NCBI GenBank assembly: GCA_964481135.1
Contig: CAYZSW010000001.1
Span: 7,963 to 71,962, forward strand
Direction of reading: 5' to 3'
Source: an uncultured Candidatus Saccharibacteria bacterium
GTDB lineage: Bacteria > Patescibacteriota > UBA1384 > JAMDBS01 > DAOVQR01
Length of the DNA: 64,000 nt
Below are positions 2,370 to 62,571 of this stretch, in pieces (positions within the stretch are counted from its first letter, which is position 1; every line of letters begins with the position of its first letter). The notes beneath the pieces were generated by a model. It had not been told where the DNA came from. It saw nothing but the letters and a program-made list of their open reading frames with translations, and did not search any database. The translations under genes and the position numbers were made by a program.

Positions 2370-2465
2370 AATTAAATTTCATTTTATTCTTAATATCTTT
2401 ACAATTTTAATAAACAAAGCGATCCAATAAGTTCAACAAACGGAGTGATTCAACATTTTCAACAT

Positions 2466-3170: not shown

Positions 3171-3174
3171 AAAA

Positions 3175-3365
3175 TATCCTTATATATAAATTTTCTAATT
3201 GCACCCTGCCTCGACGGCAGGCGGGTAATTGACCTAATTATTCTAAATAAATTTCAATGACTTAAATCCTAATTAGACATTAGAACTCGGTTCTTGTTTA
3301 GGTTAATTAGAATAATTAGGAACTAATTAGGTTAATTAAGAGTATCTTTAGAATATATTATATTT
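3175..3365. repeat. repeated leader element (TAGGTTAATTA and AATTAG motifs plus a GC hairpin), copy A
   Basis: Shares TTAGAATAATTAGGTCAATTACC and a GC hairpin with 49120-49326. Confidence 0.5.
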
Positions 3366-12660: not shown

Positions 12661-12715
12661 CATTTTTGACCTCATCAAATTGTAAAAAGAAAATTATTAA
12701 TCATGCACTCAGGAA

Positions 12716-12790
12716 GGGCCTGTAGCTCAGTGGTAGAGCAGGAGCCTTTTAAGCTCTGTGTCATGGGTTCAATCCCCATCAGGCCCTCCA
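12716..12790 (+). tRNA. tRNA-Lys (anticodon UUU), CCA encoded
   Basis: GGGCCTG/TA/GCTC-AGTGGTA-GAGC/A/GGAGC-CTTTTAA-GCTCT/GTGTC/ATGGG-TTCAATC-CCCAT/CAGGCCC/T/CCA. Complete cloverleaf with a TTCAATC T-loop and anticodon TTT. Confidence 0.9.
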
Positions 12791-12829
12791 GATACAAGCC
12801 CTTCCTGAGTGCATATATAAATAAATTAA

Positions 12830-13223: not shown

Positions 13224-13295
13224 TTTTACTAACCTCCGGGGTTAGTAAAAGGTTTGAACCTGCAAATCTTTTGCAAACCCCGGAGGTTAGTAAAA
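13224..13295. repeat. 18-bp perfect inverted repeat (TTTTACTAACCTCCGGGG / CCCCGGAGGTTAGTAAAA) enclosing a 36-nt sub-hairpin
   Basis: Read directly. It sits in a ~400-bp stretch free of ORFs. Confidence 0.5.
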
Positions 13296-29503: not shown

Positions 29504-29678
29504 ATTTTACTCCACGATATAAATTATAAATAAACATAAAAACAGAAAAACTAATGAGTTTATTGTTTTTACATATATTATTTCTTATGCTCTTAAGCAA
29601 ATATACCTAAAATTTTTCTTTTTGTCAATTCTTAGTTTATAATAGGTTTAGAAATTAGTAATTAGGAATTAGTATTTT

Positions 29679-38301: not shown

Positions 38302-38371
38302 AAGCTAATTTTAGCATATTAACAAATGGAATAAAAGTTAAAAATGTCGTACAATATAAATAGAATACTAA

Positions 38372-38788
38372 TTGCTAATTCAACAAATTACAAATAATAT
38401 TAAAAACATTATGGATAATTTAATATATCCAGAATTAAGCTATAAGATAGTGGGTTTGCTTTTTGAAGTATATAATAAATTAGGATATGGTTTGAGAGAA
38501 AAAGATTATCAAAAAGCGATATCAATTTTCTTGAGTGAAAATAATATTATATTTCAAGAACAAGTATCCGCAAATCTTAAAATTAATAATCAGAATATAA
38601 GAAAATATTATTTGGATTTTATAATTGATAATAAAATTGTTTTGGGATTAAAAACTGAAAATAGATTTAATAAAAATAATATTGCTCAAATATACAGTTA
38701 TTTAAAATCAACTAACAAAAAATTAGGAATTATAGCAAACTTTTCAAAATATGGAGTTAAATTTAAAAGAATTGTAAATATTAAATAA
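38372..38788 (+). CDS. GxxExxY family protein (PD-(D/E)XK-like)
   Basis: IVGLLFEVYNKLGYGLREKDYQKAI matches the family signature; 138 aa. Confidence 0.75.
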   Translation: MLIQQITNNIKNIMDNLIYPELSYKIVGLLFEVYNKLGYGLREKDYQKAISIFLSENNIIFQEQVSANLKINNQNIRKYYLDFIIDNKIVLGLKTENRFNKNNIAQIYSYLKSTNKKLGIIANFSKYGVKFKRIVNIK

Positions 38789-38824
38789 TATTAGCAACCA
38801 GTTGAATTCGTAATAGGTATTAAT

Positions 38825-39835
38825 ATGGATAAGTATATTAAAGATTTTTTAGGTTATTGTGAAATAGAAAAAGGACACTCTGACCATACAATTAAAAATT
38901 ATGATCATTATTTAACACGCTTTAATAATTGGGCAAGAGCTAATAAAATTATTAAACCAGAACAAATTGATCTTGAAGTTTTAAAAAAATACCGCTTATA
39001 TTTAAATCGCTTAAAAGTTTTGAATAAAAAAACTCAGGGCTTTCATATTATTGCACTCCGTTCATTTTTAAAGTATTTAGCACAACACGATGTAAAAACT
39101 CTGGCAGCTGAAAAAATCGAGTTACCAGATATTCCAGATAGACAAATAACATTTATGGAAGAAAATGAATTAGATAAATTACTTTCCCAACCCCATACTA
39201 CAAAAATCACCGACTTAAGAGACAAAGCGATTTTAGAAGTTTTATTCTCCACTGGATTGCGTGTTTCAGAACTTGTTAAATTAAACCGTGATGAAATTAA
39301 CTTAAATAAAAATGAATTTTCAGTTGTTGGTAAAGGTGGTAAAAACAGAATAGTGTTTTTGTCAAAAAGTGCGCTTGATGCGTTAAAAAACTATTTAGCA
39401 AAAAGATTTGATAAAGATAAAGCGCTATTTATTTCACATCAAAATATTGGAAGAGACTTCAAAACTAAAGAACTTAAGAACCAAGAAACAAAAGAAAAAC
39501 AAAATAATAATAAATCAGACGACAATATTGAAAAAAGAACAAAAGAAAATTCGCAATTGCGCTTAACGACGCGCTCGGTTCAAAGAATCGTAAAAAAATA
39601 CGCAATCGCTGCAGGATTAAATAAAAAAATTACACCCCATACTTTACGGCACTCTTTTGGTACTGATTTGCTGCGTTCTGGTGCAGATTTGCGTGCTGTT
39701 CAACAGCTTCTGGGACATTCTTCAATAACTACTACTCAGATATACACACATGTCACTGACGAGCATCTAAAAGAAGTACACGATGCCTTTCATGGACAAA
39801 GAAGAGAAGATCTAAACACTAAAAAAAATAAATAG
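38825..39835 (+). CDS. tyrosine site-specific recombinase (XerC/XerD-like integrase family)
   Basis: SAM-like N-domain, catalytic R...HxxR...Y region (LRHSFGTDLL...LGHSSITTTQIYTHV) and a K/N-rich insertion. Confidence 0.8.
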   Translation: MDKYIKDFLGYCEIEKGHSDHTIKNYDHYLTRFNNWARANKIIKPEQIDLEVLKKYRLYLNRLKVLNKKTQGFHIIALRSFLKYLAQHDVKTLAAEKIELPDIPDRQITFMEENELDKLLSQPHTTKITDLRDKAILEVLFSTGLRVSELVKLNRDEINLNKNEFSVVGKGGKNRIVFLSKSALDALKNYLAKRFDKDKALFISHQNIGRDFKTKELKNQETKEKQNNNKSDDNIEKRTKENSQLRLTTRSVQRIVKKYAIAAGLNKKITPHTLRHSFGTDLLRSGADLRAVQQLLGHSSITTTQIYTHVTDEHLKEVHDAFHGQRREDLNTKKNK

Positions 39836-40031: not shown

Positions 40032-42230
40032 TTATTTTTTCTCCCAAATATCTTTTCTAAATATTAAGTATGCAAATCCGCCAGTCAATAAAATCGCAAG
40101 TAAAATATTAAACCAAAGCGCTGACCCCGTAGAAACTAAAGTACCTAAGCTAGAGCCATCTTTAATGCTTGTTGTAATTGAACAAGATTCTGTTGATACT
40201 TTTACTTCATCAGACTTCATAGATTTTTCACCTGCAGCATTATGAGCAATCACATAATAGCAGATTTCTACATCACAATTTAAACCAGTAAATACATAAC
40301 CGGTATCAGATGTTGATGTAATATATTTTCCAGTACAATCGAAAATATCATATCCTACGGCACCATCTACAGCATCCCATGTTAAAGTAGCCATACCTCC
40401 ACCGTTATAAACAAGCTCAATGTTTTCAGGTTTTTTGTCAGAAATATCCTGACCAGTTGAACACTTACCAGTGTTAACACTGGCTGTATTGCTAGGATTA
40501 GATTCCAATTCCTCATAACCAGCTGTTACATAATAACCGTAATTTGTTTCACAATTAAGTCCATCGATTACAAAACTCAAAGTATTCATATCAACTTGTG
40601 CTATCAACACTCCGCTTTCCGCGTTATAAATTCTATAATAACCAACACTGCTTCCTTCTAGTTTGTTCCATGCCAATTTTATTGAACTATTGGAAATCGG
40701 GGTGGCGGTTAGATTAATAGGTGATGGAGGGGGTGTCGGTGATACAGTTGGACTGGCCGTTGGACTAGATGTTGGGGTTAAAGTTGGAGAAGGTGTTGGG
40801 GTTATGCCACAATAAGTTTGCATACATTCTGTTCCATCTCCATATTGCGTACAATCAATTCTATATGCCCATTTAAAATAAACTGGTCCACCTGGAGTAT
40901 CAGTAGTCGCATCACACCCATAAACCTTTGTTCCTTCACATTTAAATTGACCTGATTCACATTCTGAGGGTGGAGTAACTGTTGGTGTCGGTGTTGGTGA
41001 CGAAGTTGGTGTCTCTGCTGGACAATTTAAATTTTGTGCTATCATTTCATTTGAATCGGCATATCTACCAGCACCAGTAGAGTTAACATATTTTGTCTGA
41101 ATTTTATAGGAAACATTATCATAACTTGGATAAAATTCTTCATGGGTTAGTGTAGATTCTTTATAAATAGTTGAATTGGTCGCAGACCACTGATTATTAG
41201 TTACAGATGATTTTACATAAGGCTGATAATAGTAAAAAGTGTATCCAGAGTAAGGAGTACCTTTTTGCCAACTGAGAGTATTTCTTTGTCTTCCAACTGT
41301 TGGATATCCACTAACACAAGTGGATTGAATTTTATTTAGAACAGGACTTTCATTGGCAGGAGTAGGAACTGGCGTAACACTTCCACATGAATTAGCGTAA
41401 GTTTCATAACTTCTATATGTTTTTCCATCGGCTTTATTTTTTACATATACTCGATAAGTGTAATTTGTAGATCCATCACTAAATGTATCTGTATGAGAAC
41501 ATTGTCCAGAAGAATTACATGGCCAAGTGGAAGTAATCGGTCTTTGATTAATTTGTGGACTACCAAGTGTAAATGTGCCACTCCCTGTTCTTCTCTGAAC
41601 TGTTACCCATTCGTATTTATCCCAAGGATTTGATCCTAAATTCCAAGTAAGTTGATTAGTTTTATTATTACAATTTTGATTTAAATTTAATGTAAAAGCA
41701 TTTATACATACATTTGGGTCAGTTGATGAAGTTGTACAGGTTGTACTTGGAGTTGTAGTAGGAGCGGGAGAAGTTGTAGGACTAACAGAACAAGATGCGA
41801 CCTGAACTGGACCATGTCTTTGACCTCCAGTACAATTACATTGAGCTGAAAAACTTCTTGAAAGAGAGTCTGCTGGTCCCCAGACACATTGTTGATCTCT
41901 TAATAAATTTTGGCATTGACTAATAGTTGACCATTCTGCGGAATTACCTAAACGAGTATAATAAGTACACTTACAGGCAGAAATCCCAATACCGGGGTTA
42001 ACTCTTAATGTGTCTGTTTGCATTCCGTTTGCACAAGTCGTTACAGCAGTCAAATTATTATTAGTAACAGTTCTAGTGGTACTCGCCCATAAACTAATTT
42101 TTCCTGTTTGATTGGCCCAAACTAGCGTTGCAAGTGAAAGAAAAAATATTCCTAAAACTATTACTAAGTAAGTCTTGCTCTTTTTAGTAGCAAATAATGG
42201 CTGATGCCAAATTGATTTTTTTTCTGACAT
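40032..42230 (-). CDS. large Cys-rich surface protein with Ser/Thr/Pro linkers and a C-terminal LVSTG-type cell-wall sorting signal
   Basis: Signal peptide, many Cys, TPTSSPTPTPT linkers, Ig/FN3-like repeats. C-terminus is LGTLVSTGSALWFNILLAILL...FRKDIWEKK. GC-richer than the backbone. Confidence 0.6.
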   Translation of the reverse strand: MSEKKSIWHQPLFATKKSKTYLVIVLGIFFLSLATLVWANQTGKISLWASTTRTVTNNNLTAVTTCANGMQTDTLRVNPGIGISACKCTYYTRLGNSAEWSTISQCQNLLRDQQCVWGPADSLSRSFSAQCNCTGGQRHGPVQVASCSVSPTTSPAPTTTPSTTCTTSSTDPNVCINAFTLNLNQNCNNKTNQLTWNLGSNPWDKYEWVTVQRRTGSGTFTLGSPQINQRPITSTWPCNSSGQCSHTDTFSDGSTNYTYRVYVKNKADGKTYRSYETYANSCGSVTPVPTPANESPVLNKIQSTCVSGYPTVGRQRNTLSWQKGTPYSGYTFYYYQPYVKSSVTNNQWSATNSTIYKESTLTHEEFYPSYDNVSYKIQTKYVNSTGAGRYADSNEMIAQNLNCPAETPTSSPTPTPTVTPPSECESGQFKCEGTKVYGCDATTDTPGGPVYFKWAYRIDCTQYGDGTECMQTYCGITPTPSPTLTPTSSPTASPTVSPTPPPSPINLTATPISNSSIKLAWNKLEGSSVGYYRIYNAESGVLIAQVDMNTLSFVIDGLNCETNYGYYVTAGYEELESNPSNTASVNTGKCSTGQDISDKKPENIELVYNGGGMATLTWDAVDGAVGYDIFDCTGKYITSTSDTGYVFTGLNCDVEICYYVIAHNAAGEKSMKSDEVKVSTESCSITTSIKDGSSLGTLVSTGSALWFNILLAILLTGGFAYLIFRKDIWEKK

Positions 42231-42259
42231 TTTATCCCTCCCTATTGATAGAAGCAGAA

Positions 42260-42697
42260 TTACGCAGATAGTGACGCAGAAGTACGCGGAACTTTACTGC
42301 GAGCTTTATCATAAACTCTGCGTATTATTTCTAACTTTTCCGCTCCAAAATTTATTAATAATCCTAATTTATATTTTGAACCTTTTAAATATAACCAAAA
42401 TTGTCGCTTATCTTCTTTAGTTATAAATGGTTTGCATTTAAGTTCTAAAAGAATTTTATCATTTATTATTTTATCTGGTTGATATATTCCAACCTTTTTA
42501 TTATTGAAATAAATATTAATTTTTACTTGATTTTTTACTTTAAGATTTTTGTTTTCTAGAGCAATAGTTAATGCCCTGTCAACAATTTTTTCTTTAAATG
42601 CTCCACCAAAGCATTTCCATACTTCAAAACATGCTCCTCTGACCTTGTAAGTTATATCTTTATAAAGTAATTTGTCTTGATTCATATGCTTCTGCAT
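42260..42697 (-). CDS. GxxExxY family protein
   Basis: GACFEVWKCFGGAFKEKIVDRAL signature. Flanked by imperfect inverted repeats rich in CTGCGTAATT and ACGCAGATA. Confidence 0.7.
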   Translation of the reverse strand: MQKHMNQDKLLYKDITYKVRGACFEVWKCFGGAFKEKIVDRALTIALENKNLKVKNQVKINIYFNNKKVGIYQPDKIINDKILLELKCKPFITKEDKRQFWLYLKGSKYKLGLLINFGAEKLEIIRRVYDKARSKVPRTSASLSA

Positions 42698-42775
42698 TAT
42701 TCTGCGTAATTATCTGCGTTTATCGGCTTCTACAATTTATTAAATCAAAAATATTAATATTTCACAAGTGGATAA

Positions 42776-43876
42776 CTATTTATTTTTTTTCCAAATATCA
42801 TCTCTAAACATTAAATAACCTATAGCCGAGGCCAGTAAAACTGCAAGTATAAGATTAAACCATAAAGAAGAACCTGTAGAAACTAGGGTTTTTAAATTAT
42901 TTAAACCAATCTCGCCTGAACTTATAGCATTAATATCGTCTTCGTTGTTGCTTTGATTCACACTAGTAATAACCTTTCCACCTGCCATATAAGTTCCGTC
43001 ATCTAAAAAACTATCATCCGACGAACCTTCTTTGCTCGTTTCAAAACCTAAATTATCCATAACCTTGTAATTAACTCTAATATCACAACCATTTAAAAAT
43101 GGAGTTAACCTGTTCGGAGAAAGGGTTTGTCCTAGCATGATTCCATCAAAATAATCTATTGGAGTAAATTCAATCACCGAATATGCTCCGGGCTGATTAG
43201 TACCTGCGTAATAAATATCACCATATTGTTGACAGTGTGCGTCGAGATCTAAATCTGGAATTTGATCAAAATCAAAACCTCTAGGTTTATTTTGAATTAC
43301 TCCATAATATGTATCGTATCTACCAGCATTATCTTGTTTATCCCCTTCTTTAGGAGTTGGAGCGTTGTGATAATTTACATCTGGCAAACGCCGATTCCCG
43401 ATTTTTGTTTTTATATTTTTAAAGTTTTTTGGATCATAAAAGTTTGGACTAATTCCTGCAAATATAAAATTCGGCAAGACATCAAGAGATGCGTTAATAT
43501 AATCCCATTTTCCGTTTTGTATACATTTTAAATATGGCGCCTTATAAACTAAATCCCCATCTATTTGGTGATAATCGAAATCTCCCATAGTGTAAGTAAC
43601 GGTATATGGTTGATTTTTTTCTAAATAAACAATTTCAGGTATTTCGACTACATCTTTTGCTAAATCAAAAAAACATTTTTCTGTAATCTTTTTGTTGTCT
43701 ACTATCATCTTTCCACTAATACATAAAGTACCTGGTGATTTATTTAAGCTAGCACTAATTTGTAGCAAATTTTTATGATTTAAATAAATTAAAACTGCAA
43801 AAAAAATTAATATTATTGATATCAAAACAAAACTAATAGTTTTAATTTTTTTATTTATTGGATTACTCACAATCAA
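42776..43876 (-). CDS. surface protein, paralogous C-terminal sorting signal
   Basis: Signal peptide. C-terminus is LKTLVSTGSSLWFNLILAVLL...FRDDIWKKNK. Confidence 0.55.
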   Translation of the reverse strand: MIVSNPINKKIKTISFVLISIILIFFAVLIYLNHKNLLQISASLNKSPGTLCISGKMIVDNKKITEKCFFDLAKDVVEIPEIVYLEKNQPYTVTYTMGDFDYHQIDGDLVYKAPYLKCIQNGKWDYINASLDVLPNFIFAGISPNFYDPKNFKNIKTKIGNRRLPDVNYHNAPTPKEGDKQDNAGRYDTYYGVIQNKPRGFDFDQIPDLDLDAHCQQYGDIYYAGTNQPGAYSVIEFTPIDYFDGIMLGQTLSPNRLTPFLNGCDIRVNYKVMDNLGFETSKEGSSDDSFLDDGTYMAGGKVITSVNQSNNEDDINAISSGEIGLNNLKTLVSTGSSLWFNLILAVLLASAIGYLMFRDDIWKKNK

Positions 43877-43915
43877 TCCTCCTGAATTATAAACCTCAAA
43901 ATAATTATTATATTA

Positions 43916-44494
43916 TTACTTTTTTCTTTTTTTCCAAATATCTTCTCTAAACATCAAATAGCCAATTGCCAGAGCAAGTAACACCGCAAGTACAAGATTA
44001 AACCACAAAGATGCGCCTGTAGAAATTAAAACAGCTGGATTTTTATGATAATCTGTTGGAAAATACAACTCTTCGTTTTCTAAATCCATTGGATCTGAGT
44101 ATATGGTTGGATAAGATATTGGGGAAATCTGTAGACAACAACAAGATTTACCCGCACCAAGAATTTGATCGTCTAAATAGCAATCTTCTGTTTGCCCAAT
44201 AGATATTTCCCCTTCTAGACAAATTTGCGGATCTTCTATAATTGGGTATTCTCTGCAAATTCCTGTTTCGTATCCCCTACTTAGACATTTTTCTTGACAA
44301 GTGTCGATAATAACAGTTGGCTGTGGAACTGGTGGGCTTGGGGTTGGAGTTTCCATAATAGGCACATACACATCAGCGGCAATTTTTAACTTTTGATTTG
44401 ACCCATACCAAATAATTACAGCTAAAAAAATTAAAAAAACACCTATTATAAAAAGCCAGGTCGTTTTAGTGTTATTTGAAAGTTTATTTTTCAA
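43916..44494 (-). CDS. small Pro/Cys-rich surface protein, paralogous C-terminal sorting signal
   Basis: TTG start after GGGAGGGG. C-terminus is AVLISTGASLWFNLVLAVLL...FREDIWKKRKK. Confidence 0.55.
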   Translation of the reverse strand: MKNKLSNNTKTTWLFIIGVFLIFLAVIIWYGSNQKLKIAADVYVPIMETPTPSPPVPQPTVIIDTCQEKCLSRGYETGICREYPIIEDPQICLEGEISIGQTEDCYLDDQILGAGKSCCCLQISPISYPTIYSDPMDLENEELYFPTDYHKNPAVLISTGASLWFNLVLAVLLALAIGYLMFREDIWKKRKK

Positions 44495-48001: not shown

Positions 48002-48134
48002 TGTCGGATGCCCCTCCCTGCACAGAACTACACAAATATGAACACGGATTATACACTAAAATTGATAGTTTCATCACAAGAGCAACTAATCAGTGTATTA
48101 TTTTGTGTTCCCGCCTGTGTGAATTTTGTGTGTT

Positions 48135-48596
48135 CTAATATATTTCTTCGATATTATTAATAATCAGAATTCCGCTTGCATTAAAAGTAGCTAAAGCTTC
48201 AACTTTACAGATGTATCTATTGTTATTAACACGGCTTACAATGTTTATGTTTTTTGGGTTATCCCCAGTTATATCTATTATAACACTTCCGTCATCAAAA
48301 ATTAAGTTTGTGCCAGCAAAAGATGGATCCCGCATAATTCTCAAAATGGATTCATCTATTGCTGATATTGCATTGTTGTAGGCCTCGTCAGATTTTTTTA
48401 AATTAAAACTCATATCAGTATCAATTAAAACATTTTGTAAAACAACAGTTACTGCCAACAAAGCAACGGCTAAAATTACCATAACAGCTACCATGGCAGA
48501 ACCCTTTTCACATACAGAACCACACAAAAATGAACACATATTTACACTCTTCTTATGTAACTTTAATTTATTTATTGATGGTAATTGATGTGTCAT
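48135..48596 (-). CDS. hypothetical membrane protein, possible minor pilin (PilX-like), start uncertain
   Basis: N-terminal hydrophobic helix but no canonical GFTLIE. An alternative start ~48494 (MVAVMVIL) follows an AAAAGGG RBS. The annotated start sits inside a CA-rich repeat. Confidence 0.35.
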   Translation of the reverse strand: MTHQLPSINKLKLHKKSVNMCSFLCGSVCEKGSAMVAVMVILAVALLAVTVVLQNVLIDTDMSFNLKKSDEAYNNAISAIDESILRIMRDPSFAGTNLIFDDGSVIIDITGDNPKNINIVSRVNNNRYICKVEALATFNASGILIINNIEEIY

Positions 48597-48624
48597 TTTG
48601 TGTTCCTATTTGTGTTGATTTGTG

Positions 48625-49119
48625 TTACTTAAGGTAGTATGTTGTTTCAAATTCCTGCGAAATATCACGCTTACCCTCAACCTCTCCAATAAAATTAATA
48701 TTTATTTTAATTTGTATACTAGGCCTGCCTCCGACATTGGCAATTTTACGAAATTCTAAACTTTCTACTTTAACTTGGTTTGAGGTAACATTATCAAAAT
48801 CACCGCTTTCTGATCGAATTAATGTACCCGATATCAAACCATAACTCACATCTCCAGCTATTAAATTATTTGTTGGGTTGTTATCGTTTGGCACATCGAC
48901 ACTACTTGCATTTTGCAAATCACGAATAATTAACTCTGTGACAAACCTACCATTTTTTTGAATTTCAAGTCGTGCAGTTTCTTCTTGAGAAAAATAACTG
49001 GCAGTAATTAATAAGTTTGTAATTATTAAAAGAATTATCGATAAAAGCCCCATATATATAATGGTTTCTATGAGGGTGAAACCACCTTCAAATTTTTTTC
49101 CACTTTTATATTTTTTCAT
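48625..49119 (-). CDS. pilin-like protein with prepilin-type N-terminal cleavage/methylation domain
   Basis: KFEGG / FTLIETIIYMGLLSIILLI. Confidence 0.65.
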   Translation of the reverse strand: MKKYKSGKKFEGGFTLIETIIYMGLLSIILLIITNLLITASYFSQEETARLEIQKNGRFVTELIIRDLQNASSVDVPNDNNPTNNLIAGDVSYGLISGTLIRSESGDFDNVTSNQVKVESLEFRKIANVGGRPSIQIKININFIGEVEGKRDISQEFETTYYLK

Positions 49120-49326
49120 AATTAAATAAAATTTCTAATTTTTCTAATTGATCTAATTATTCTAAACAAATACCAAACTATAATTTCTAATGTCTAAATG
49201 TATTTTCTCTTTTTTGTTATTGGTGTTTGGGTCATTTTTTAGGTTAATTACCTGCCCGCCATTAGCTATCGCTTCAAGCGATTAGCAGGCGGGGAAATTA
49301 GGTTAATTAGGTTAATTTCTACTCGC
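49120..49326. repeat. repeated leader element, copy B
   Basis: GAAATTAGGTTAATTAGGTTAATTTC, a CCTGCCCGCC...GGCGGG hairpin and TTAGAATAATTAGATCAATTAG, ending in CAATTAGAAAAATTAGAAATTT before an ATG. Confidence 0.5.
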
Positions 49327-51251
49327 TATGGTGAATAATTCACCGACACATCGTAAACAACCGGTGTTTTGCTATTCTCAAGTGTTGTTAAATATATTTT
49401 ATATTTTATATATCTTCCTAAAGAATGTGAAAGAGGAATTGCTTCTCCATCTGGATTGGTAAATCGCGTTGCTTCTGTTCCGTCTGGTCCTACAAAATTC
49501 CATGTTGCATTATCAGTATTAGTAGCAATTTGGAATTCTACATTTGTTACTCCGGGATCGATCAATTCTGTCCAAAAAATCCGATTAAATGAAACTTCAT
49601 CACCTGCATCAAAAGTACTTGATATATATTGCCCAGACGGAAAGTAACCAGTTTCTGCGATAGCTGAAAGTCGAAACATTGTATCTTGATTATTAAATAC
49701 ATTCCAATTTGTACCGGCATTATTGCTTTCTGTATATCTTGCATCTAAACCCAGATAATTAATATCATTGTCTGGGCTTCGGTCTAAATTTTCTGCGTGT
49801 TCTATGTGATATGATCGATTATGTGCAGTTCCAGGTGATTTTAGATAAAATCTATATTGCCTTCCTTCTATAAAAGCAATTTTTGGGTCAAGTGAAATTT
49901 CATGTAGTTGATAATCCATAGTAATATCTGTTCTTGTAACAAAAATTTCGTTAAATAAAATAGTATTGGTTGTCATATCTTCAATAACTAAATATAAATC
50001 ATCTTGAGGCTGAGCACCAACACTTTTTTTAACATAAATTGCCATTCTATTAAAAAACTCTGTACCCTCTTTGTAAGTAAAAATTTCTCCTTTATAAAAA
50101 TTTCCGTAAACATCTTTGTCTCGTGCTTCATGATATGGATTTCCTTCGGCTTCTGGGTTGCTATCAGTAAATAATAAAATATAAACAGGCGTATTATTAA
50201 CATCTGACCAGTTTGCGCCACCATTACTAGTCCAGCGGATCATAAGATTTAAATCATCTGCACTAGTTAAAGGCACAACCAAGTTTAAAGGATTTAAAGT
50301 TCTAAATATAATTGATCTTCCGGCATTTATTTGACCTGAATTATGCTCTATTACTAGGTGATAAATATTACCAGCTGTAATAGAAACATTTTCATTTAAA
50401 TTAAGTTCATGCCAGCCAGTGTTATTAGTTTGAAAATCTTTATAACCCTCATTATTACCTCCCAACCAATTACCACTTGGACTACCGTTATTATCTGATT
50501 GCAGTCCATATCTATATGTAGGAGTTTGATTTTGATGAGTAGAAGAAATGTAAATTCTAAGCGCTCTTACCTCTTTTGTATTTTGAGCAGTAAAACGAAA
50601 AGAAACTTTTTTACTTGAATTATCTAATGCATCTGTTTGGCTAGTACCAAAAACAGAGAATCTGTTACCAACTTGCTTGCCTTCACCTTGTCCATAAGCA
50701 AGCTTAATTTCACCACCTTGATCGTTTGTAACTTCTGTATCATTTACAGTCCCATCTATAAAATCATTATAAGTTGTTTCAATCCAATTAGCATTGTTTT
50801 GATAACGAGTCAGATATATTTCCTTAGATATAGATAAATTACGGGGTTTTTGCCAAGAAACAGAAATAATAAATTTTTTTGTCGATGGGTCCTCAATTCC
50901 ACTTTCTGATATTTCTCCGCTAACCGCATTACGGTAAACTGATTCGATAGAGATGCTTCTAGTAAAATTATCATCGATATTTTCTACACCATCTGCTAAA
51001 TTCCACACTCCGTTATTATTTATAATACGAGCGGGATATGTATGATAAACTAAGTCATTCCACGACCGCTCGTGTATTGAATAAAGAGCATTAACTGCTT
51101 CTTGAACATATTCTTCTGCTTGAGTTTGTTTTAATGAATTAAACTGAGCTTGTGAAATATCTACAAAAAGACCAATAACTGAACTAATTATTACACTAGC
51201 AATAGCAGTAGCAATAATAAGCTCAATTAGAATTTGACCTTTATTTGACAC
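49326..51251 (-). CDS. large (~640 aa) pilin-like protein, candidate tip or PilY1/PilV-like adhesin subunit
   Basis: The ORF-track N-terminal extension translates a CA-rich leader. A GTG ~51251 gives MSNKG / QILIELIIATAIASVII, a classic short prepilin leader, followed by 600 aa of beta-rich sequence. Confidence 0.5.
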   Translation of the reverse strand: MSNKGQILIELIIATAIASVIISSVIGLFVDISQAQFNSLKQTQAEEYVQEAVNALYSIHERSWNDLVYHTYPARIINNNGVWNLADGVENIDDNFTRSISIESVYRNAVSGEISESGIEDPSTKKFIISVSWQKPRNLSISKEIYLTRYQNNANWIETTYNDFIDGTVNDTEVTNDQGGEIKLAYGQGEGKQVGNRFSVFGTSQTDALDNSSKKVSFRFTAQNTKEVRALRIYISSTHQNQTPTYRYGLQSDNNGSPSGNWLGGNNEGYKDFQTNNTGWHELNLNENVSITAGNIYHLVIEHNSGQINAGRSIIFRTLNPLNLVVPLTSADDLNLMIRWTSNGGANWSDVNNTPVYILLFTDSNPEAEGNPYHEARDKDVYGNFYKGEIFTYKEGTEFFNRMAIYVKKSVGAQPQDDLYLVIEDMTTNTILFNEIFVTRTDITMDYQLHEISLDPKIAFIEGRQYRFYLKSPGTAHNRSYHIEHAENLDRSPDNDINYLGLDARYTESNNAGTNWNVFNNQDTMFRLSAIAETGYFPSGQYISSTFDAGDEVSFNRIFWTELIDPGVTNVEFQIATNTDNATWNFVGPDGTEATRFTNPDGEAIPLSHSLGRYIKYKIYLTTLENSKTPVVYDVSVNYSP

Positions 51252-51333
51252 AGAATTACACAAATTGGAACACAAATTACCACACCTATTAAGTTGATGT
51301 GTATTTCTGTGTTCTGTTTTGTGTTTTTCTGTG

Positions 51334-51858
51334 TTAATTAACATCAATTACTCCCAACTTATTAATTGTAAAATTTCTAGTTTCGCCGGAGCTTAACTCA
51401 GATAATGAAAAATTTTTATTTTGCTCATCGTAATTCCTTACATTACCAAAAACTTTCTCAAAGACAATTGTCGAATTATCTGGTAAATTTGAATCTAATG
51501 ATAAATTGTCTGGTAAATTTACATTGATATTATAATTATCACTCGGGTTATAAATAATTCCCCGATATAAAACAATTTTATTTTCAACTGAATCAAAATA
51601 TATGCTAAAATTTTCGCCCGACTCAGCTGTATCGCAATTTTGGGTACACATTCTACTCATTGCCTGATTCTGTGCCTGATATATAGTAGATAATATTTGA
51701 GTCGAAAAAGAATCCAAACTGTTGGTTCGTTGAAAATTTAAATAAGAAACCCACGATCCAGCTAAAATAATACCAAAAATTCCTATCGTCACTAATAGTT
51801 CAATTAAAGTAAAACCTTTTTTAACTTGTAGCTGGTAGCTTTTTAGCTTATTAGACAA
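51334..51858 (-). CDS. pilin-like protein (prepilin-type N-terminal domain)
   Basis: TTG start after GGAGGGGC. KKG / FTLIELLVTIGIFGIILA. Confidence 0.65.
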   Translation of the reverse strand: MSNKLKSYQLQVKKGFTLIELLVTIGIFGIILAGSWVSYLNFQRTNSLDSFSTQILSTIYQAQNQAMSRMCTQNCDTAESGENFSIYFDSVENKIVLYRGIIYNPSDNYNINVNLPDNLSLDSNLPDNSTIVFEKVFGNVRNYDEQNKNFSLSELSSGETRNFTINKLGVIDVN

Positions 51859-52407: not shown

Positions 52408-52456
52408 AATTATACTCCTTTCTTTCACACAGAACTACACAAATAGGAATACAAAT

Positions 52457-52882
52457 TTACACTTTAGTTAAAAACGGTTTTCTATCATTGGTGTAAATGA
52501 TTCTTTTGACATATAGTTTTAGTGTAGAAAAATTTACTAAATAACCTATTTCATATTTACTATTTCTTAAATAATGATAAAGTTGTATTTCGTCTTGTTT
52601 AGTAGTGAATCTTGACGATTTCAATTCTATAATAATTTTATTATCGATAATTACATCTGGTTTATAACTTCCTACTTTTTTACCAGTCTGATTAGAATAA
52701 ATACTAATTAATTTTTCTTTTTCAATTTTTATTTGTTTATTTGTTAAATATTCAATCAATAAATTCTGATAAATTGATTCTTTGTGACCAGGTCCGTATT
52801 CCTTTCTTATTTCGAAAAAACATCCTTGAACAATATAGCTTAATTCCTTGTAAAGGAACAGCTTCTTATCTGGTGCGTTCAT
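52457..52882 (-). CDS. GxxExxY family protein
   Basis: [29 protein letters not shown]. Start MNAPDKK follows AGGAACACAA. Flanked by ~20-bp imperfect inverted repeats at 52425-52465 and 52870-52920. Confidence 0.7.
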
Positions 52883-53023
52883 TTGTGTTCCTGTTTGTGT
52901 TGTTTTGTGTTGTAACCAACGGTAATGTAAAGCTAAAATTGGAGCCATGCCCTTCGCGACTCTCTACCCATATTTTACCACCACATCCTTCAACTATCAA
53001 TCGGGAAATGTAAAGGCCTAAAC

Positions 53024-55201
53024 CTAATCCTGACCCTGACCTTCGATAACTTTTTTAGTTCCACCAGATACTTGATAATACTTAGTAAATAATGCCTCTT
53101 GTTTTTCTTCGGAAATACCTTGTCCAGAATCAGAAATAGAAAACTGGGCGAATTTATCTTTTAATTGTATATCAAATTTAACCCAACCACTTTTAGTATA
53201 TTTTATAGCGTTATCTATTAGATTAGTAAGAACTTGCTGAATTTTATCAGAATCAGTATAAACAAAAAGTTGCTCAGGAATTTCCTCAAGCTTAAATTCA
53301 AGACCTTTTTTCTCGGCTATTGGAGATATCTGTTTAATTAAAGTTTTTACAATGGGAATAATATCTATATTTTTTGGCTGAATAGTAATTTTCCCTTTTT
53401 CTATACGAGATGAAGTTAAAAAATCATTAACCATGCGAATTAATCTTTCGGAAGCAGATTGAGTTTCTTTAAGTGGTTCGCGTAAAGTTTCTGGAATTTG
53501 CCCAAAGTCACCATTTAAAATCATATCATTATATCCCTTAATGGCTGTCATTGGAGTTCTTAGATCGTGTGCGGCAATATTTAAAAATTCATCTTTCATT
53601 TTTGCAAGTTCTCTTTCTTTTGAAACATCATGAAACACTACCACGCAACCTATAATTTTATTGTTATTATCTCGTAGAGGAGAAGCACTATCTGCAACTG
53701 GAATTTTTTTATTATATTTTGTAAGTAGGTAAGTATGATTTGTCATATAGGTAATCGTGCCACTAGTCATAGCGTCTCGGACAAATTTATCATTTATTGA
53801 ATTGTCTTTTTCTAAATAAAATTTAAGTATATCTTTGTATACTTTGCCAACTGCTTCTTCTTTAGTATATCCAGAAATTTTTTCTGCAATAGAGTTAAAC
53901 ATAATTATCTTTTCATCTAGTCCAATTACAAATACAGCATCTCCAATAGAAGAAAGTATTGCTTGAATTTTATTTCGTTCGTGTTCAGTTTTTAGTTTTT
54001 CCTCATTTACATCTTCTAAAATATTTAAAATTGCCTTTTGTTGATTTTGCATTTTTTGATCGTTTAGTTTAATCTCTTTTGTTTGCTCTTCTACTTTTTT
54101 ATCAATTTCGGCACGAGATACTTTAATAGCACTAGTTAAATTATCAATTTCTCTTGATAGGTCTCCGATTTCATCTTTAGAATTATTACCAACCTTGTAA
54201 TCCAAATCTCCTTTTTGAATAATTTTTATGCCTTTATGCAAATTTTCAATTGGTTTAGAAAGAATGCGAGCAACAAATAGAGCTACCGCAAAAGAAAATA
54301 ATAAATAAACTAAACTAATAACTATCAAAATATTTATTTCATGATTAATTGGCGCAAAAACTTCCTTTTGATCAATCTTAACAACTAGTCCCCAGCCGGT
54401 GTGGTCAATATAACGAGACGCAGAAAAAACTTTTTCGTTACGATAATCAGCTAAATCTGTAAAGTAATCTTCGTTATTTAAAAGTGCCTGAACAAGTGGT
54501 ATGTGTGTATCTAATTTAGTTACTTTTACACCGGGTGGATAAGGATGTCTGGTTTCTAAAAAATACTCAACATCATTGTTTTCATCTAACCTAGCAATTA
54601 TTGTTTCTCCTGTTTCACCCAACCCAGAGTAATCATTCATAATATTAATTATTTCTTCTGGACTTGTTTGAACAATAGACACACCTAACACATTTTCATC
54701 TTTTTGTATTGGGCCGGCAAGATAAAACCAATTTTCTTTATTTTCTTCGTCTTTTACAAATGTAATATAATTTTTTTCCTTGCCAAATTCAAAATATTCT
54801 TCGCTAGAAAAATTTTTGTTTTCTTGATCTTTTTCACTTGAAGCAATAACTTTACCATCTTTATCTGTTATCCAAAGAGCGTTATAATCTGTACTTGATT
54901 TTTTAGCATCTTCTAATCGTCGCGAGAGGTCATCTTTGTCTATTGAATCAGGATTGTTATAATAATCCTGCATTAAATCAATAACCCCCACTCTTGAAGT
55001 AAAAATTTTAATTCGTTCTAAATTAATATTAATAAGATTTTCAACTCTTGATTCTTGTAAATCTGCTATTACATTTAATTTTTCCTCGGTATTATCTAAA
55101 GCATTTTTTCGCATCTCAAAATAACCATAAAAAATGGATATCAAAAAAGAGAAAAATGCTATACAAACTATGCTAATAATAATTCTTGTTCTGATTTTCA
55201 T
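53024..55201 (-). CDS. sensor histidine kinase (TM, extracytoplasmic domain, HAMP, PAS, HisKA, HATPase_c); 3' end frameshifted in an A6 run
   Basis: [14 protein letters not shown]-box and [10 protein letters not shown]1 box. The ORF stops at GQGQD, but the G2 box [41 protein letters not shown] continues in another frame down to ~52876. Confidence 0.75.
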
Positions 55202-55252
55202 AATAATTATATTGGTAACGCGTAATGGGTAATAAGTAACGCGTAATTAATA

Positions 55253-55789
55253 TTATCTAATATTTTTTCTTGCCGCATACATTCTTTCAGCTAAACCACC
55301 ATTTTGTAAAAAATCTTTTTCTAAACTCTGAAGCTGGCGATCTAATAGATAGTTAGCTTGGTGAATTAAACAAATTATTGAATTTGCTGCAGATTCTGGA
55401 TCTGACATATAGGTCATATAAGTCTCATAAGACCTATTCGACCTATAAGATAATTTTCTAATTTCCTGAATTCGTGAATCTTCTTTGTTCCAAAGTTTTA
55501 ATTTTTTCTGACGCAAAAAATCCAAATAATCTTCTAAAAGTTCTTCTAAACTTGCCCTAGCCACACCAATAAGTTTTATTTCAGATTTTTTTGATGTACC
55601 TGAAACTTGACTTCCTTCAACAATATTTTGCTTTCCACTTCTTGCGGCTTGGACCATTTGATCACGCGTCCTAGAAAATTTACTAACATATTTATTACAA
55701 AATTGGTCTGTCAAATCGTAAACTATAACCGAATTTTGATAGGATTTTAACTTTTTGTATCCTCCATGAATAGATATAAAATTTGACAT
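55253..55789 (-). CDS. four-helix-bundle protein (TIGR02436 / 23S rRNA intervening-sequence protein family)
   Basis: KSYQNSVIVYDL...GKQNIVEGS pattern; 178 aa. Confidence 0.65.
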   Translation of the reverse strand: MSNFISIHGGYKKLKSYQNSVIVYDLTDQFCNKYVSKFSRTRDQMVQAARSGKQNIVEGSQVSGTSKKSEIKLIGVARASLEELLEDYLDFLRQKKLKLWNKEDSRIQEIRKLSYRSNRSYETYMTYMSDPESAANSIICLIHQANYLLDRQLQSLEKDFLQNGGLAERMYAARKNIR

Positions 55790-55887
55790 TTAATTTTTCC
55801 TTAAATTTTATTTATTCTACTATCTTACCTACTTGCCTACAGGTCTTACTATTTATCTACCATCCTACTGGCCTACTTTCTACTAGC

Positions 55888-56208
55888 CTACTTGTCTAAT
55901 TTCTCCACTAACTTCATAATTTCTTCTTGGTGTTTTTTTACTACTTCCTGATTTCTAAATTTTTTGGCAAACTGGGCTAATTCTCTTAGGGAATTTATGA
56001 TTGATTCTTTGGTTGGATTTTCAAAATCCCCTCCGGAATCAACGAATGCTTTTTTAACAATTTCTACACAGTATTCTTTTTCCATAGATTCCTGATTAGA
56101 AACTCCTGCATCGCTACAATGTGCCTGGCTAAAACATTCGCTTATTGCATCGCGCACCATAAGTGGTGTAATTTTTTCATTTAAATCAACTCCGTAAATT
56201 TTTGTCAT
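55888..56208 (-). CDS. hypothetical protein
   Basis: 106-aa acidic ORF. Leader has (A)GTAGG repeats. Confidence 0.4.
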   Translation of the reverse strand: MTKIYGVDLNEKITPLMVRDAISECFSQAHCSDAGVSNQESMEKEYCVEIVKKAFVDSGGDFENPTKESIINSLRELAQFAKKFRNQEVVKKHQEEIMKLVEKLDK

Positions 56209-57631: not shown

Positions 57632-57694
57632 ATTTGCTCCGCAAAACTTATAACTAATATTTCATAACTCATAACCATATCTAATAACTTAAAA

Positions 57695-58084
57695 CTATTT
57701 TTTGCCTTTTAAAGTCAATAAACTAGAAGCAAGCATTTTGGTTATTTGTTGACATTCGTCTAATAACGGTTCTGCCTCTTTTTTCTGAATTAATTTTGAA
57801 TCTTTCAATAAACTTAGCCAATACAATGTTTCATTGGCAGATTTTAAAGAAATATCATAATATTTAATAAATTCTTTTTTTGAACTAGATGATTTTGCTT
57901 CTACAATATTTGCTCCAATAGATGTTGATGATCTTAAAAGTTGATCTGAAACTATCCAATACATTTTTTTATTAGGCAAGCTATTTATAAACTTGATAAT
58001 GGATAATGAAAAATTATACGCTCTAATTTTTACATTAGAAGATTTAACATTTGAGTTATGATTATGAGTTATGAGTTTTAACAT
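57695..58084 (-). CDS. four-helix-bundle protein (TIGR02436 family)
   Basis: YNFSLSIIKFINSL...RSSTSIGANIVEAKS. Its ATG lies 3 nt after the PAS gene stop. ATAACTCAT-type inverted repeats occur at both ends. Confidence 0.65.
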   Translation of the reverse strand: MLKLITHNHNSNVKSSNVKIRAYNFSLSIIKFINSLPNKKMYWIVSDQLLRSSTSIGANIVEAKSSSSKKEFIKYYDISLKSANETLYWLSLLKDSKLIQKKEAEPLLDECQQITKMLASSLLTLKGKK

Positions 58085-58089
58085 ATGAA

Positions 58090-59337
58090 TTATTTTCCTT
58101 TCAACCTTTCAATCTCTTTTTTAAGCTCTATCATTTTAAGTTCGCGACCCACCATAAGATTATTCATTTTTTCTGTAAATTGCGTTTGTTTTTTTAATTT
58201 TTCTTGCGCTTCCATTTCTTTTGAAATATCAAAAATAAATCCTTCTAGGTGTTTAATATTTCCCTTATTATCTTTTATTGCAAGTCCCTTTTCATGAACC
58301 CAAATATTTTTTTCATCTTTACTTATGATACGATAATCAATTTCCCAGTATCTATTTTCTTTTACTGCCTTGGAAATTCCTTCTGATACTAGACTTCTAT
58401 CTTGTTTGTAAATTACACTTTCATAAGTTCTAATTTTATTTTCTACAAAATCACTTGCCTTATATCCACACAACTGCTCAATATAATTACTTACAAACAT
58501 CATGGTCCAATTTTTATCAAACTTACATTTGTAAATAATTCCCGGGATATTATTAACTAAATTTGAAAATTCTTTTTGAAACTGCTCAAGCTTAATTTTA
58601 TTTAGCTTATTTTCATTAATATCTCTATCTATTCCTCTATATCCGGTGGATCCATCTTGTTTTTTTACTGGTAGACCATAACTTAAAATCCAAAATATTT
58701 TTCCATTTTTATCTAAAAGACGATTTTCTAAATTGATTGTCTTTTTACCTTCTTTAATAAAAGCTAAGCCAATTTTTTTAATTTCTTCTTTGTCTGGAGA
58801 CAAATCATAAAAATGTTTTTTGCCAATGACCTCTTCTGGCTTATATCCCAAAACTTGTTCTATAGAAGGACTTACATATGTATACAAACCATTTTCATCA
58901 ACTTCCCAAATAAAAGATTTGCTTTCACTAACTAAACTTTCGTATGCCTTATTTAATTCAAGAATTTTTTGTTCGTTTTTAATTCTATTGGTAATATCGT
59001 GAGCTAAACTTAAAATTGCTTTTTTGCCATGAAAGTCAATAACTTGGGAATTAATTTCTACTGGAATTTCCCTGCCATTACTTGTAACATGAGCCGAACG
59101 AAATACTAACTTTCCTTTGGATTTTAACTCCTGGATTCTTTGGGGCACCATTTTAGCATATTTAGGTGAATCAATTTTCTGTGGGCCAATTTCTAATAAC
59201 TGTTCTTTGGTGTATCCTAACCGACTGCAAGCTTCTTTATTGACATCTAAAAAATTACCCTCTAAGTCGTGGATAAATACAGCTTCATTTAAATTTTCGA
59301 ATATTATTTGATATTTATCATCCATTTTTGCTTTCAT
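58090..59337 (-). CDS. multi-PAS sensor protein lacking a kinase domain
   Basis: Three PAS/PAC-like repeats, then a coiled coil ending MVGRELKMIELKKEIERLKGK. Confidence 0.6.
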   Translation of the reverse strand: MKAKMDDKYQIIFENLNEAVFIHDLEGNFLDVNKEACSRLGYTKEQLLEIGPQKIDSPKYAKMVPQRIQELKSKGKLVFRSAHVTSNGREIPVEINSQVIDFHGKKAILSLAHDITNRIKNEQKILELNKAYESLVSESKSFIWEVDENGLYTYVSPSIEQVLGYKPEEVIGKKHFYDLSPDKEEIKKIGLAFIKEGKKTINLENRLLDKNGKIFWILSYGLPVKKQDGSTGYRGIDRDINENKLNKIKLEQFQKEFSNLVNNIPGIIYKCKFDKNWTMMFVSNYIEQLCGYKASDFVENKIRTYESVIYKQDRSLVSEGISKAVKENRYWEIDYRIISKDEKNIWVHEKGLAIKDNKGNIKHLEGFIFDISKEMEAQEKLKKQTQFTEKMNNLMVGRELKMIELKKEIERLKGK

Positions 59338-62377: not shown

Positions 62378-62571
62378 GCCCCTCCCTGTAAACAAATATA
62401 CACAAATCAGAATACAAACCAACACGCTGAAATTGATATTTTGATCAGTAAAATAATATTACTAGTGTGTTATTTTATTTTCGCATCTGCGTATATTTGT
62501 ATTATAGAGTCTATTTCATTATATCAAAAATTAGGATATTTAGATATTGTTAATTGTCTAATAATATTATT

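Follow-up and report, generated by a model that had tools for sequence, protein, structure and literature searches.

In the REPIN/RAYT systems, named after hairpin-forming doublets of repetitive extragenic palindromes (REPs) and after REP-associated tyrosine transposases, a single small gene lies between inverted copies of a short repeat (Bertels and Rainey, PMC3116915, PMC3337134). The repeat also occurs without a gene in the same genome, as hairpin doublets of about 100 nt and as intergenic singletons; each gene has its own repeat type, inheritance is largely vertical and sites persist for long. Another described case is that of the intervening sequences (IVSs) of 23S rRNA in Leptospira and Coxiella, where one small open reading frame (ORF) lies between inverted repeats with a predicted stem. 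The Coxiella IVS is 428-444 nt long, is bordered by a 28-bp stem and is cut by RNase III (Warrier et al. 2016, PMC4990558). The locus considered here resembles both. It lies in a stretch of 64,000 nucleotides, called the window hereafter, from an uncultured Candidatus Saccharibacteria bacterium (contig CAYZSW010000001.1), where positions 42249-42732 of the minus strand form a 484-bp unit in which a gene for a nuclease of the GxxExxY family is enclosed between two inverted arms. The unit represents a family of palindromic intergenic elements of about 480 bp that is widespread and, it appears, undescribed. The reading that seems most plausible, although it must be held tentatively, is that of a selfish palindromic element similar to REPINs or to miniature inverted-repeat transposable elements (MITEs), whose ends would be putative binding arrays for its own nuclease.

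All the features listed above for REPIN/RAYT have a counterpart here, namely the lone gene between inverted repeats, the gene-less doublets and singletons, the gene-specific repeat types and the mostly vertical, long-lasting presence at a site. The components are different. The enzyme has a PD-(D/E)XK fold, whereas RAYTs are HUH/Y1 (IS200-like) transposases, and the repeat consists of four phased heptamers in a non-palindromic array headed by TAGAAGC, in contrast to the 20-40-nt REP palindrome with its GTAG or CGTC head. Several gene copies are found per genome, three of them in the window, and the hosts are bacteria of the candidate phyla radiation (CPR), Omnitrophota and other uncultured phyla. 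The comparison with the 23S rRNA IVSs rests on a similar size (428-444 vs 484 nt), on the fact that both are viewed as selfish elements that may or may not be mobile, and on the presence in the window of an IVS-family PF05635 gene with a comparable bracket (57645-58091). In contrast to these IVSs, the element lies between protein genes and not in an rRNA helix, its ORF is of the PD-(D/E)XK type (PF13366) and not an S23p/PF05635 four-helix bundle, and its arms are arrays of tandem units with mismatched spacers instead of a near-perfect 28-bp stem.

DNA transposons with terminal inverted repeats and subterminal repeats, such as Ac/Ds and CACTA in eukaryotes, together with MITEs and with the ends of Tn7 and Mu, which carry multiple transposase sites, offer a further comparison. 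Like them, the element has a short, conserved terminal inverted sequence and phased subterminal repeats resembling binding sites at both ends, as well as gene-less, internally deleted derivatives made of the two ends only. Unlike them, it encodes no DDE or other known transposase, shows no detectable target-site duplication save a possible TA, has no near-identical multi-copy families among the copies seen, and measures less than 0.5 kb as a whole. Free-standing homing endonuclease genes include PD-(D/E)XK examples, e.g. I-Ssp6803I, and there too a small nuclease gene is placed exactly midway in a sequence whose uninterrupted version (here, a gene-less "mini" palindrome) may be both target and repair template. 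The differences are that no intron or intein is involved here, that the presumed target is a dispersed palindrome and not a unique gene site, and that cleavage of the minis is hypothetical.

The PF13366 family has been described as of "function unknown" and as having undergone multiple lateral transfers (PMC3424549). In the literature searched, papers mentioning GxxExxY do so in passing only, and neither array-bracketed GxxExxY genes nor the corresponding minis and solo arrays are described, although the NCBI or InterPro family entries may carry a curator's remark about repeats at the flanks.

Anatomy of the element and its gene

A previous reading of the DNA letters (the sequence-only reading) had pointed to imperfect inverted repeats around a lone GxxExxY ORF, the second of the window, and had proposed that it was inserted like a cassette among surface-protein genes. 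The inverted repeat proves to be real. A repeat search finds arms of 43 nt at 42249-42291 and 42690-42732, 77% complementary and separated by 398 nt. The ungapped inverted-repeat score of the region 42100-42900 is 18, against 11.4 +/- 1.2 in dinucleotide shuffles, none of which scores as high (0/100). A comparison restricted to the two ORF flanks again gives 18 (7.9 +/- 1.1 in shuffles, 0/500 as high), which places this ORF first for a flanking inverted repeat among the 64 ORFs of at least 100 aa in the 64-kb window. The genome is AT-rich and many weak inverted repeats occur in the region, which is what a chance origin would have in its favour; in view of these shuffles, of this rank and of an architecture found again in 56 of 80 homologous loci (see below), such an origin is refuted for all practical purposes.

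The outline of the element needed some correction. The right flank had been placed at 42700-42745, about 10 nt off the actual arm (42689-42732); the left flank had been given as GTAGAAGC, where the DNA reads GATAGAAGC; and the supposed 440-bp cassette is in fact the 484-bp unit, which begins with TAGAAGC (42249-42255, plus strand) and ends with GCTTCTA (42726-42732). Moreover, the arms are not simple repeats, each being an array of four phased units. In the orientation of the gene, the 5' arm (42689-42732, minus strand) has the minus-strand sequence TAGAAGCCGATAAACGCAGATAATTACGCAGAATAATGCAGAAGC, with its TAGAAGC head at 42732-42726; its units, written on the plus strand, are TCGGCTT (42723-42729), TCTGCGT (42713-42719), TCTGCGT (42701-42707) and TCTGCAT (42691-42697). 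The 3' arm (42249-42291, minus strand), of plus-strand sequence TAGAAGCAGAATTACGCAGATAGTGACGCAGAAGTACGCGGAA, is made up of the plus-strand units AAGCAGA (42252-42258), ACGCAGA (42262-42268), ACGCAGA (42274-42280) and ACGCGGA (42284-42290). From the tip inward, both arms thus read TAGAAGC followed by four 7-nt units (AAGCNGA once, then ACGCNGA three times), which are spaced 10, 12 and 10 nt apart and, counted from the tip, start at 3, 13, 25 and 35 nt. This spacing averages about one helical turn, so that the units would lie on one face of the DNA. A single arm is a direct array of four heptamers and is not self-complementary. The heptamer TCTGCGT occurs nine times in 64 kb, where 2.2 occurrences are expected, and five of the nine are within the element; no gene-less ACGCNGA array is found within the 64-kb window.

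The element is located between two protein-coding genes, outside any 23S rRNA helix. An upstream spacer of 43 nt (42733-42775, minus strand) separates its head from the stop of the gene for a 366-aa surface protein (42776), and a downstream spacer of 18 nt (42231-42248, minus strand), which contains a Shine-Dalgarno-like GGGAGGG, leads from its end to the ATG (42230) of a 732-aa gene. An Rfam scan of 37.5-45.5 kb returned no rRNA or other family, only two chance matches to snoRNAs, and a promoter scan on the strand of the GxxExxY gene found no promoter-like site upstream of it, with fewer matches than in shuffled sequence. The possibility of an integron gene cassette, with a single attC (R''/R' core sites) behind the ORF and an array beside an integrase gene, was also considered and ruled out: repeats stand on both sides of the ORF, the attC-like core GTTRRRY is absent at the element, and the sole tyrosine recombinase nearby is XerC-like and 3 kb off.

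The enclosed ORF (42260-42697, minus strand, 145 aa) belongs to the GxxExxY/PDDEXK_3 family, as had been recognised from its letters: it scores 98.8 bits against PF13366 (cut-off 22), its sole Pfam match, and 95.3 bits against TIGR04256 (cut-off 35). The PD-(D/E)XK catalytic domain covers residues 13-126 of the 145-aa ORF (Pfam envelope; 42320-42661, minus strand) and is confidently modelled, with a predicted alpha/beta fold of the restriction-endonuclease type. The catalytic constellation, a glutamate in helix 1 followed by D...ExK, is intact: among 33 sequences, E36 and K87 never vary, and D75 and E85 are kept in at least 90%. A search of the PDB by sequence and a search of PHROGs gave no match for the nuclease. 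A search of 2.9 million viral contigs turned up just 4 arm matches and not one relative of the protein, and a phage origin is thus not supported.

Gene and arms are interlocked. The first ATG is overlapped by the innermost 5' unit, and the second one, at 42685, is the likely true start (MNQDK, 141 aa), at which the database copy P0001 also begins. At the other end, the ORF has no stop of its own; it reads into the 3' arm and ends at a TAA (42262-42260) between two units, so that the arm encodes the last ~12 residues (..PRTSASLSA*). The tail ..PRxSASLSA or ..PRxSA recurs in homologues of many phyla because it is translated arm; residues 133-145 are predicted to be disordered (pLDDT, the per-residue model confidence, <50). 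The arrays therefore distort gene calls, the arms adding N- and C-terminal extensions to the predicted proteins, this tail included. A role of the arms as stops in all three frames was considered and dropped, since stops are enriched only when the arms are read outside-in (3.67 vs 2.46 per arm) and the stop content of the 3' arm in sense equals that of shuffled sequence. The GxxExxY family is very large, a single search finding 4,564 clusters at 50% identity. In many of the cluster representatives (P0109, P0127-P0167), the GxxExxY domain is embedded in a protein of 300-900 aa, possibly through fusion to the upstream host gene or through a gene call that reads on from it, and some representatives carry two tandem domains (~260 aa).

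Conservation of the bracket and gene-less copies

The recurrence of the bracket was addressed by fetching 80 homologous loci (labelled by L-numbers), with one genome per species and relatives at 46-77% identity. The hosts include Roizman-, Uhr-, Doudna-, Sungii-, Portnoy- and Magasanik-bacteria and other CPR lineages, as well as Omnitrophota, Methylomirabilis, Planctomycetia, Elusimicrobiota and Ignavibacteria. The layout can be recognised by eye in almost all of these loci. As a stricter measure, an exact hexamer is present at least twice upstream of the gene, with its reverse complement at least twice downstream, in 56/80 loci, as opposed to 5 when the direct orientation is taken and 3/70 when the windows are displaced by 500 nt. 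TAGAAGC precedes the gene in 36 loci, GCTTCTA follows it in 41, and 33/81 have the two together, where ~0.015 would be expected per flank. The impression that such bracketing is recurrent and cassette-like, and not a coincidence, was therefore well founded.

In the 33 loci with both termini, the element is 449-567 bp long, mostly 477-515 bp, and each arm again has its units starting at 3, 13, 25 and 35 nt, the spacing being 10 nt in 72 cases and 12 nt in 38. The gene is always exactly between both arms and has its start and stop in common with them. The unit core varies among loci, yet agrees in the two arms of one locus, as seen with ACGCTGA/TCAGCGT, ACGCGGA/TCCGCGT, ACGCAAA/TTTGCGT, ACGCCAA/TTGGCGT, ACGCGAC/GTCGCGT and ACGGAT/ATCCGT. 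Insertion within a surface-protein family had been part of the initial picture; this is true of the present site and incidental to the element, since homologues adjoin metG, rplK, atpC, miaA and pilin genes.

The unit class follows the divergence of the protein. Relatives at 55-80% identity have ACGCNGA units; an ACGCNAA clade groups L029 with L055 and L043 with L059; paralogues at 33% identity have ACACAAA or GCTAAT units; and a gene of 32% identity, on a plasmid of a cultured Fusobacteria bacterium, is surrounded by CACAGAT and ATCNGTG arrays. A single genome may contain two or more unit types, each associated with a gene of its own (L059 and L065, L053 and L056, L064 and L078). As a separate observation, L026 and L028 share a larger duplicated segment.

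The arms are also found without the gene. Hairpins of 83-96 nt, consisting of a 5' arm and a 3' arm only, are present in the fetched loci: L014 (4081-4164, 84 nt), L047 (1879-1974, 96 nt) and L080 (three of 83 nt and TAGAAGC-type, at 3394, 3941 and 4376, between pilus-operon genes), with further ones in L005, L029 and L056. L080, a metagenome-assembled genome of the Planctomycetia, has a mini in each spacer of a pilus/secretion-like cluster (1570-4458); judged by eye only, these minis are roughly 80-85% alike. The same locus shows a 152-nt hairpin variant at 1570 and has its GxxExxY gene at 2998-3396. All the minis examined match the unit type of the resident gene (L014, L029 with its rare ACGCAAA, L047, L056 and L080).

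An unbiased view was obtained from a scan of metagenome contigs with the arm pattern TAGAAGCNGATNNACGCNGAT, which yielded at least 120 loci, with 136 arm matches listed; as an ungapped search for the partner arm missed irregular hairpins, these matches were reclassified by unit counts and a hidden Markov model. The counts that follow refer to the matches listed. Ten abut a GxxExxY gene (five as 5' arm, five as 3' arm), 32 belong to mini hairpins, 88 are partnerless single arrays and 6 are cut by contig ends. Most solo arrays retain all four units, as judged by eye. The intergenic spaces between co-directional genes hold 54/64 of the solo arrays and 19/22 of the minis.

These figures can also be read in favour of host intergenic repeats with a cellular role of their own, such as REP-like punctuation of transcripts, DNA bending or binding of a host protein. 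GxxExxY, IVS-protein and GIY-YIG genes would then be passengers that lodge, or are retained, at the centres of palindromes, and the nuclease would have an unrelated job, e.g. in defence or repair. The 120/136 listed matches that are solo arrays or minis away from GxxExxY, and their preference for co-directional gene gaps, fit such an explanation, as do the occurrence of two unrelated protein families plus a GIY-YIG gene (L065) at equivalent sites and the many gene-less array types of the window, which holds 22 phased short-unit arrays vs 8.3 +/- 2.6 in shuffles. What makes it rather improbable is the constant position of the gene between the arms, the way in which the unit type follows the gene lineage and the minis match the resident gene, and the coexistence of several unit types with their own genes, which is hard to reconcile with a single host factor. 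PADLOC, for its part, assigns no defence family to the nuclease, with weak Cas4 matches only, for the third paralogue of the window.

Phased units resembling binding sites on both sides of a gene, beside its start codon, also call to mind repressors that bind heptad arrays. The arms could accordingly be operators, bound by the protein for the sole purpose of looping the DNA and repressing its own gene, and the unit would be neither mobile nor selfish. This seems very improbable: gene-less minis and solo arrays elsewhere in the genome would be left unexplained, and so would the conserved terminal heads and the presence or absence of the element at orthologous sites; moreover, repression does not need a conserved nuclease active site.

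Arm pairing, sequence recognition and possible mobility

The most serious rival places the function of the arms in RNA. The element would be an intervening sequence of an operon transcript, in which the arms pair as an imperfect stem of ~40 bp and are cut by RNase III or by the encoded nuclease; the cut would release a small end-paired mRNA and separate the flanking cistrons. The arms would then exist for pairing, and the tandem units would merely be an easy way of keeping them complementary. The Coxiella IVS described above, with its stem and its RNase III cut, is a precedent for this scheme, and the bracketed PF05635 "23S rRNA IVS protein" gene of the window speaks for it as well. The upstream neighbour is co-oriented with the element in 27/33 loci, in 12/33 a long upstream gene uses the TAG of the head to terminate, and the lack of a promoter-like site ahead of the gene agrees with expression from an operon. 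Both the minimum free energy and the centroid fold of the RNA from 42240-42745 (minus strand) contain an arm-to-arm stem closing the ORF, with an energy of -109.1 kcal/mol vs -81.6 +/- 5.5 in shuffles (z = -5.0).

Comparison of the arms position by position is less favourable to pairing. At core positions, the 5' arm and the reverse-complemented 3' arm agree in 70-90%, whereas spacer positions match in just 12-27%, a below-chance value explained by the richness in A, on the coding strand, of the spacers of either arm. When the full hairpin is considered in 17 elements, 81.0% of the pairs are standard, vs 79.0% when the partners are shuffled among sequences, and the spacer columns are systematically unpaired (in 12-14 of the 17). 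Position-specific complementarity at the variable base N of the units, which would have supported a hairpin, was rejected: agreement is 0.60 for positionally paired units, 0.675 for non-paired units within an element and 0.32 between elements, meaning that the units are homogenised within each element and not compensated pair by pair. In the same way, a signature of G-U wobble on the sense strand was looked for and rejected, the core mismatches comprising 26 sense G-U, 27 antisense G-U and 63 transversions. Some covariation by position is seen in the two central units, where N is paired in 13/17 and 15/17 elements with three types of Watson-Crick pair; the covariation score is 0.138 vs 0.089 in shuffles for these 17 elements, an excess that relatedness alone can produce.

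The gene-less copies point in the same direction. Intact partnerless arrays are common, exceeding the paired ones by 88 to 42 among the matches listed, which shows that a stem is not needed for an array to persist. The head and cores are kept from phylum to phylum, although a purely structural constraint would not call for this, and no Rfam family is found at the locus. On this evidence, the RNA-level scheme is considered unlikely, though well worth keeping in mind. Sequence recognition is favoured over pure stem pairing by the letters themselves, since the cores match without the spacers, N is homogenised within the element and no G-U bias is seen. The different readings do not exclude one another, as an element that is read through could be recognised as DNA and processed as RNA.

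The 43-nt module is a candidate recognition array, as suggested by its helical phasing, by the conservation of its head and cores and by the fact that solo arrays persist. The enclosed nuclease is in turn the candidate reader of these arrays, being the sole protein linked to them both physically and phylogenetically, with a unit sequence that shifts as the protein diverges. The selfish palindromic element preferred here may then operate as follows. The nuclease would bind the phased units at both ends, each element lineage having its own unit sequence, and would cut at the heads or close to them, or midway in palindromes that lack the gene. Such cuts would promote copying of the element, which could proceed by excision and reinsertion or else by break-and-repair homing into gene-less copies; the latter would be a route that dispenses with strand-transfer activity, as repair of the broken palindrome would copy the gene in. 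The 83-96-nt hairpins and single arrays would be non-autonomous or decayed derivatives. Placed between cistrons and co-oriented with its neighbours, the element is probably read through by host transcription. The system would thus resemble REPIN/RAYT, or a MITE with its transposon, with an enzyme of restriction-endonuclease fold.

Orthologous sites were compared for traces of such a history, and the expected variation in presence and absence was indeed seen, although the "empty" sites are not simply empty. At one junction, the full element of L037 corresponds to a solo 5' array in L057, directly followed by the ATG of the next gene. Ahead of metG, the element is complete in L015, L023 and L058, and L152 has a solo array in its place. 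Between a nusG-like and an rplK-like gene (names by eye), L029, L055 and L064 have a full element and L032 has a mini with ATGCGGAT units, its own GxxExxY element being one gene upstream. At the atpD|atpC-like junction, a full element in L017 is matched by a mini of unrelated units in L038. In three Omnitrophota, the junction between a SPOR-domain-like and a miaA-like gene is occupied by either a GxxExxY gene (L036, 422-847) or a PF05635 gene (L037, 1818-2219; L057, 1584-2015), each element having its own unit arrays. A small GIY-YIG-like gene, identified as such by its translated sequence, is observed in L065 (5083-5466) behind a GC-rich hairpin, where L038 and L043 have GxxExxY; it may represent a third family of small intergenic nuclease genes. 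For the locus in the window itself, the sole homologue of the 366-aa neighbour, at 38% identity, has its next paralogue 32 nt on with no element between; it is too distant for defining an empty site. The adjacent paralogue junction in the window measures 39 nt.

Several observations weigh against a selfish element moved by its own nuclease. The "empty" orthologous sites are never bare and always keep an array or hairpin, sometimes of an unrelated unit type, which would also fit a host function of the arrays or old, vertically inherited elements in decay. No evidence of recent movement was obtained: all contigs with the exact protein share the same neighbours and have the element present, so that no strain-level absence was found; no 2-8-nt direct repeat outside the termini exceeds chance, although the TA of TAGAAGC/GCTTCTA could be a target-site duplication; and no near-identical copies at different places were found in the fetched loci, no complete genome being scanned. 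The enzyme is a 125-aa PD-(D/E)XK domain without strand-transfer activity, and its predicted structure shows no separate DNA-binding domain. Genes of the non-enzymatic four-helix-bundle family PF05635 stand in a similar bracket, which implies that the enclosed gene need not be a mobility enzyme. The A-rich spacers of the coding strand break the inverted symmetry and thereby suggest some influence at the transcript level. Lastly, the type of the N base (A, G or T) shows no correlation with protein similarity, only the deeper unit classes tracking clades.

A broader proposal, possible and on balance doubtful, would be that dispersed phased-heptamer palindromes constitute a new prokaryotic class of selfish elements, propagated by the minimal 125-aa PD-(D/E)XK nuclease at their centre through recognition of its own arrays and excision or homing. 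If true, this would provide a function for the GxxExxY family and, by extension, for the bracketed 23S-rRNA-IVS-protein genes, and would represent a restriction-fold analogue of the REPIN/RAYT partnership. Should the nuclease act on the arrays, it would define a new enzyme class for REP/MITE-like repeats and a source of genome plasticity in the streamlined CPR genomes. A large family of unknown function is in any case tied to a precise and conserved DNA architecture, which makes it a testable system, with a defined 43-bp sequence as the predicted binding or cleavage substrate.

Sister elements and other arrays in the window

Two more GxxExxY genes of the window have an equivalent layout. The first gene (ORF 38372-38788, likely start 38412) is part of an element at 38364-38821 (plus strand), whose 5' end begins TAGAATAC. 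It is flanked by inverted repeats, as had been reported: its arms (38364-38404 and 38781-38821) are 41 nt long, 73% complementary and made of AT-rich units (TGCTAAT, ACAAAT, TACGAAT). Taken alone, this repeat is only marginally significant, with a flank score of 13.5 reached by 8/500 shuffles and a rank of 3 among the 64 ORFs. A XerC/D-like tyrosine recombinase gene (38825-39835, plus strand) starts 4 nt past the 3' arm; no other locus showed this adjacency, which is probably incidental. The third gene (ORF 52457-52882, PF13366 E 7e-27) belongs to an element at 52426-52913 (minus strand), with three ACACAAA units on the 5' side and TTTGTAT, TTTGTGT and TCTGTGT on the 3' side. Its 5' array seems to extend into the end of the 725-aa histidine-kinase-like gene upstream (53024-55201). 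The arms of the first and second elements had been called sequence-unrelated, and the unit sequences do differ; the architecture is nevertheless common to all three genes, as is a related unit pattern (ACGCAGA, GCTAAT/ACAAAT, ACACAAA).

Three gene-less hairpins with ACACAGA/ACACAAA units (48021-48135, 48500-48628 and 51241-51341) occupy spacers of a pilus-like gene cluster, within 5 kb of the third gene, whose arms are of the same ACACAAA type. Hairpins in this cluster inflate the called N-terminus of the ORF at 48135-48596.

Proteins of the PF05635 family are known from rRNA intervening sequences, including those of CPR rRNA genes (PMC11270868), and also as relatives of Avd (PMC10053308). The PF05635 element of the window (57645-58091, minus strand; ORF 57695-58084, E 1e-27) has ACTCATA and TATGAGT units and the second-best ORF-flanking inverted repeat of the window (score 16). 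Its gene stands between protein-coding genes, with no adjoining rRNA gene seen, and six more PF05635 genes in the fetched loci are similarly bracketed, each with its own units. Since IVS-protein genes share this kind of bracket and can occupy the site of a GxxExxY element, the long-unexplained ORF-bearing IVSs of 23S rRNA become linked to a broader population of intergenic elements. A further ORF of 178 aa (55253-55789, minus strand) has a sub-threshold PF05635 match (30.9 bits vs a cut-off of 33.8) and is flanked by arrays at 55222-55247 and 55865-55892 (GTAACGC/GTAATGG, CCTACT), which are not mutually complementary.

The genes on either side of the 484-bp element are paralogues with a common C-terminus, as had been noted. 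They form part of a tandem set of surface-protein genes (40032-44494, minus strand; 192, 366 and 732 aa) sharing STG[SA][SA]LWFN, a hydrophobic helix and a basic tail. The motif STG[SA][SA]LWFN matches no Pfam or NCBIfam entry and could be a sorting signal particular to this lineage; an fn3 domain is present in the 732-aa protein.

Among the other repeats of the window, a hairpin of 109 nt at 62392-62500 has arms of 51 nt (71% complementary), a loop of 7 nt and the units ACAAAT, ACACAAAT and TCTGCGTAT, and abuts a CCCTCCC Shine-Dalgarno complement, like other elements. Arrays without an enclosed small gene are located at 1535-1649, 3200-3330, 20968-20997, 29654-29672 and 49134-49165, the TTTCGAA and AATTAG types having several sites each. 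Finally, two strong hairpins that do not look like unit arrays are present at 13224-13295 and 12703-12814; one of them has 33-nt arms that are 91% complementary and a 6-nt loop (TTTTACTAACCTCCGGGGTTAGTAAAAGG..), and the other has 25-nt arms (92%) and a 62-nt loop.

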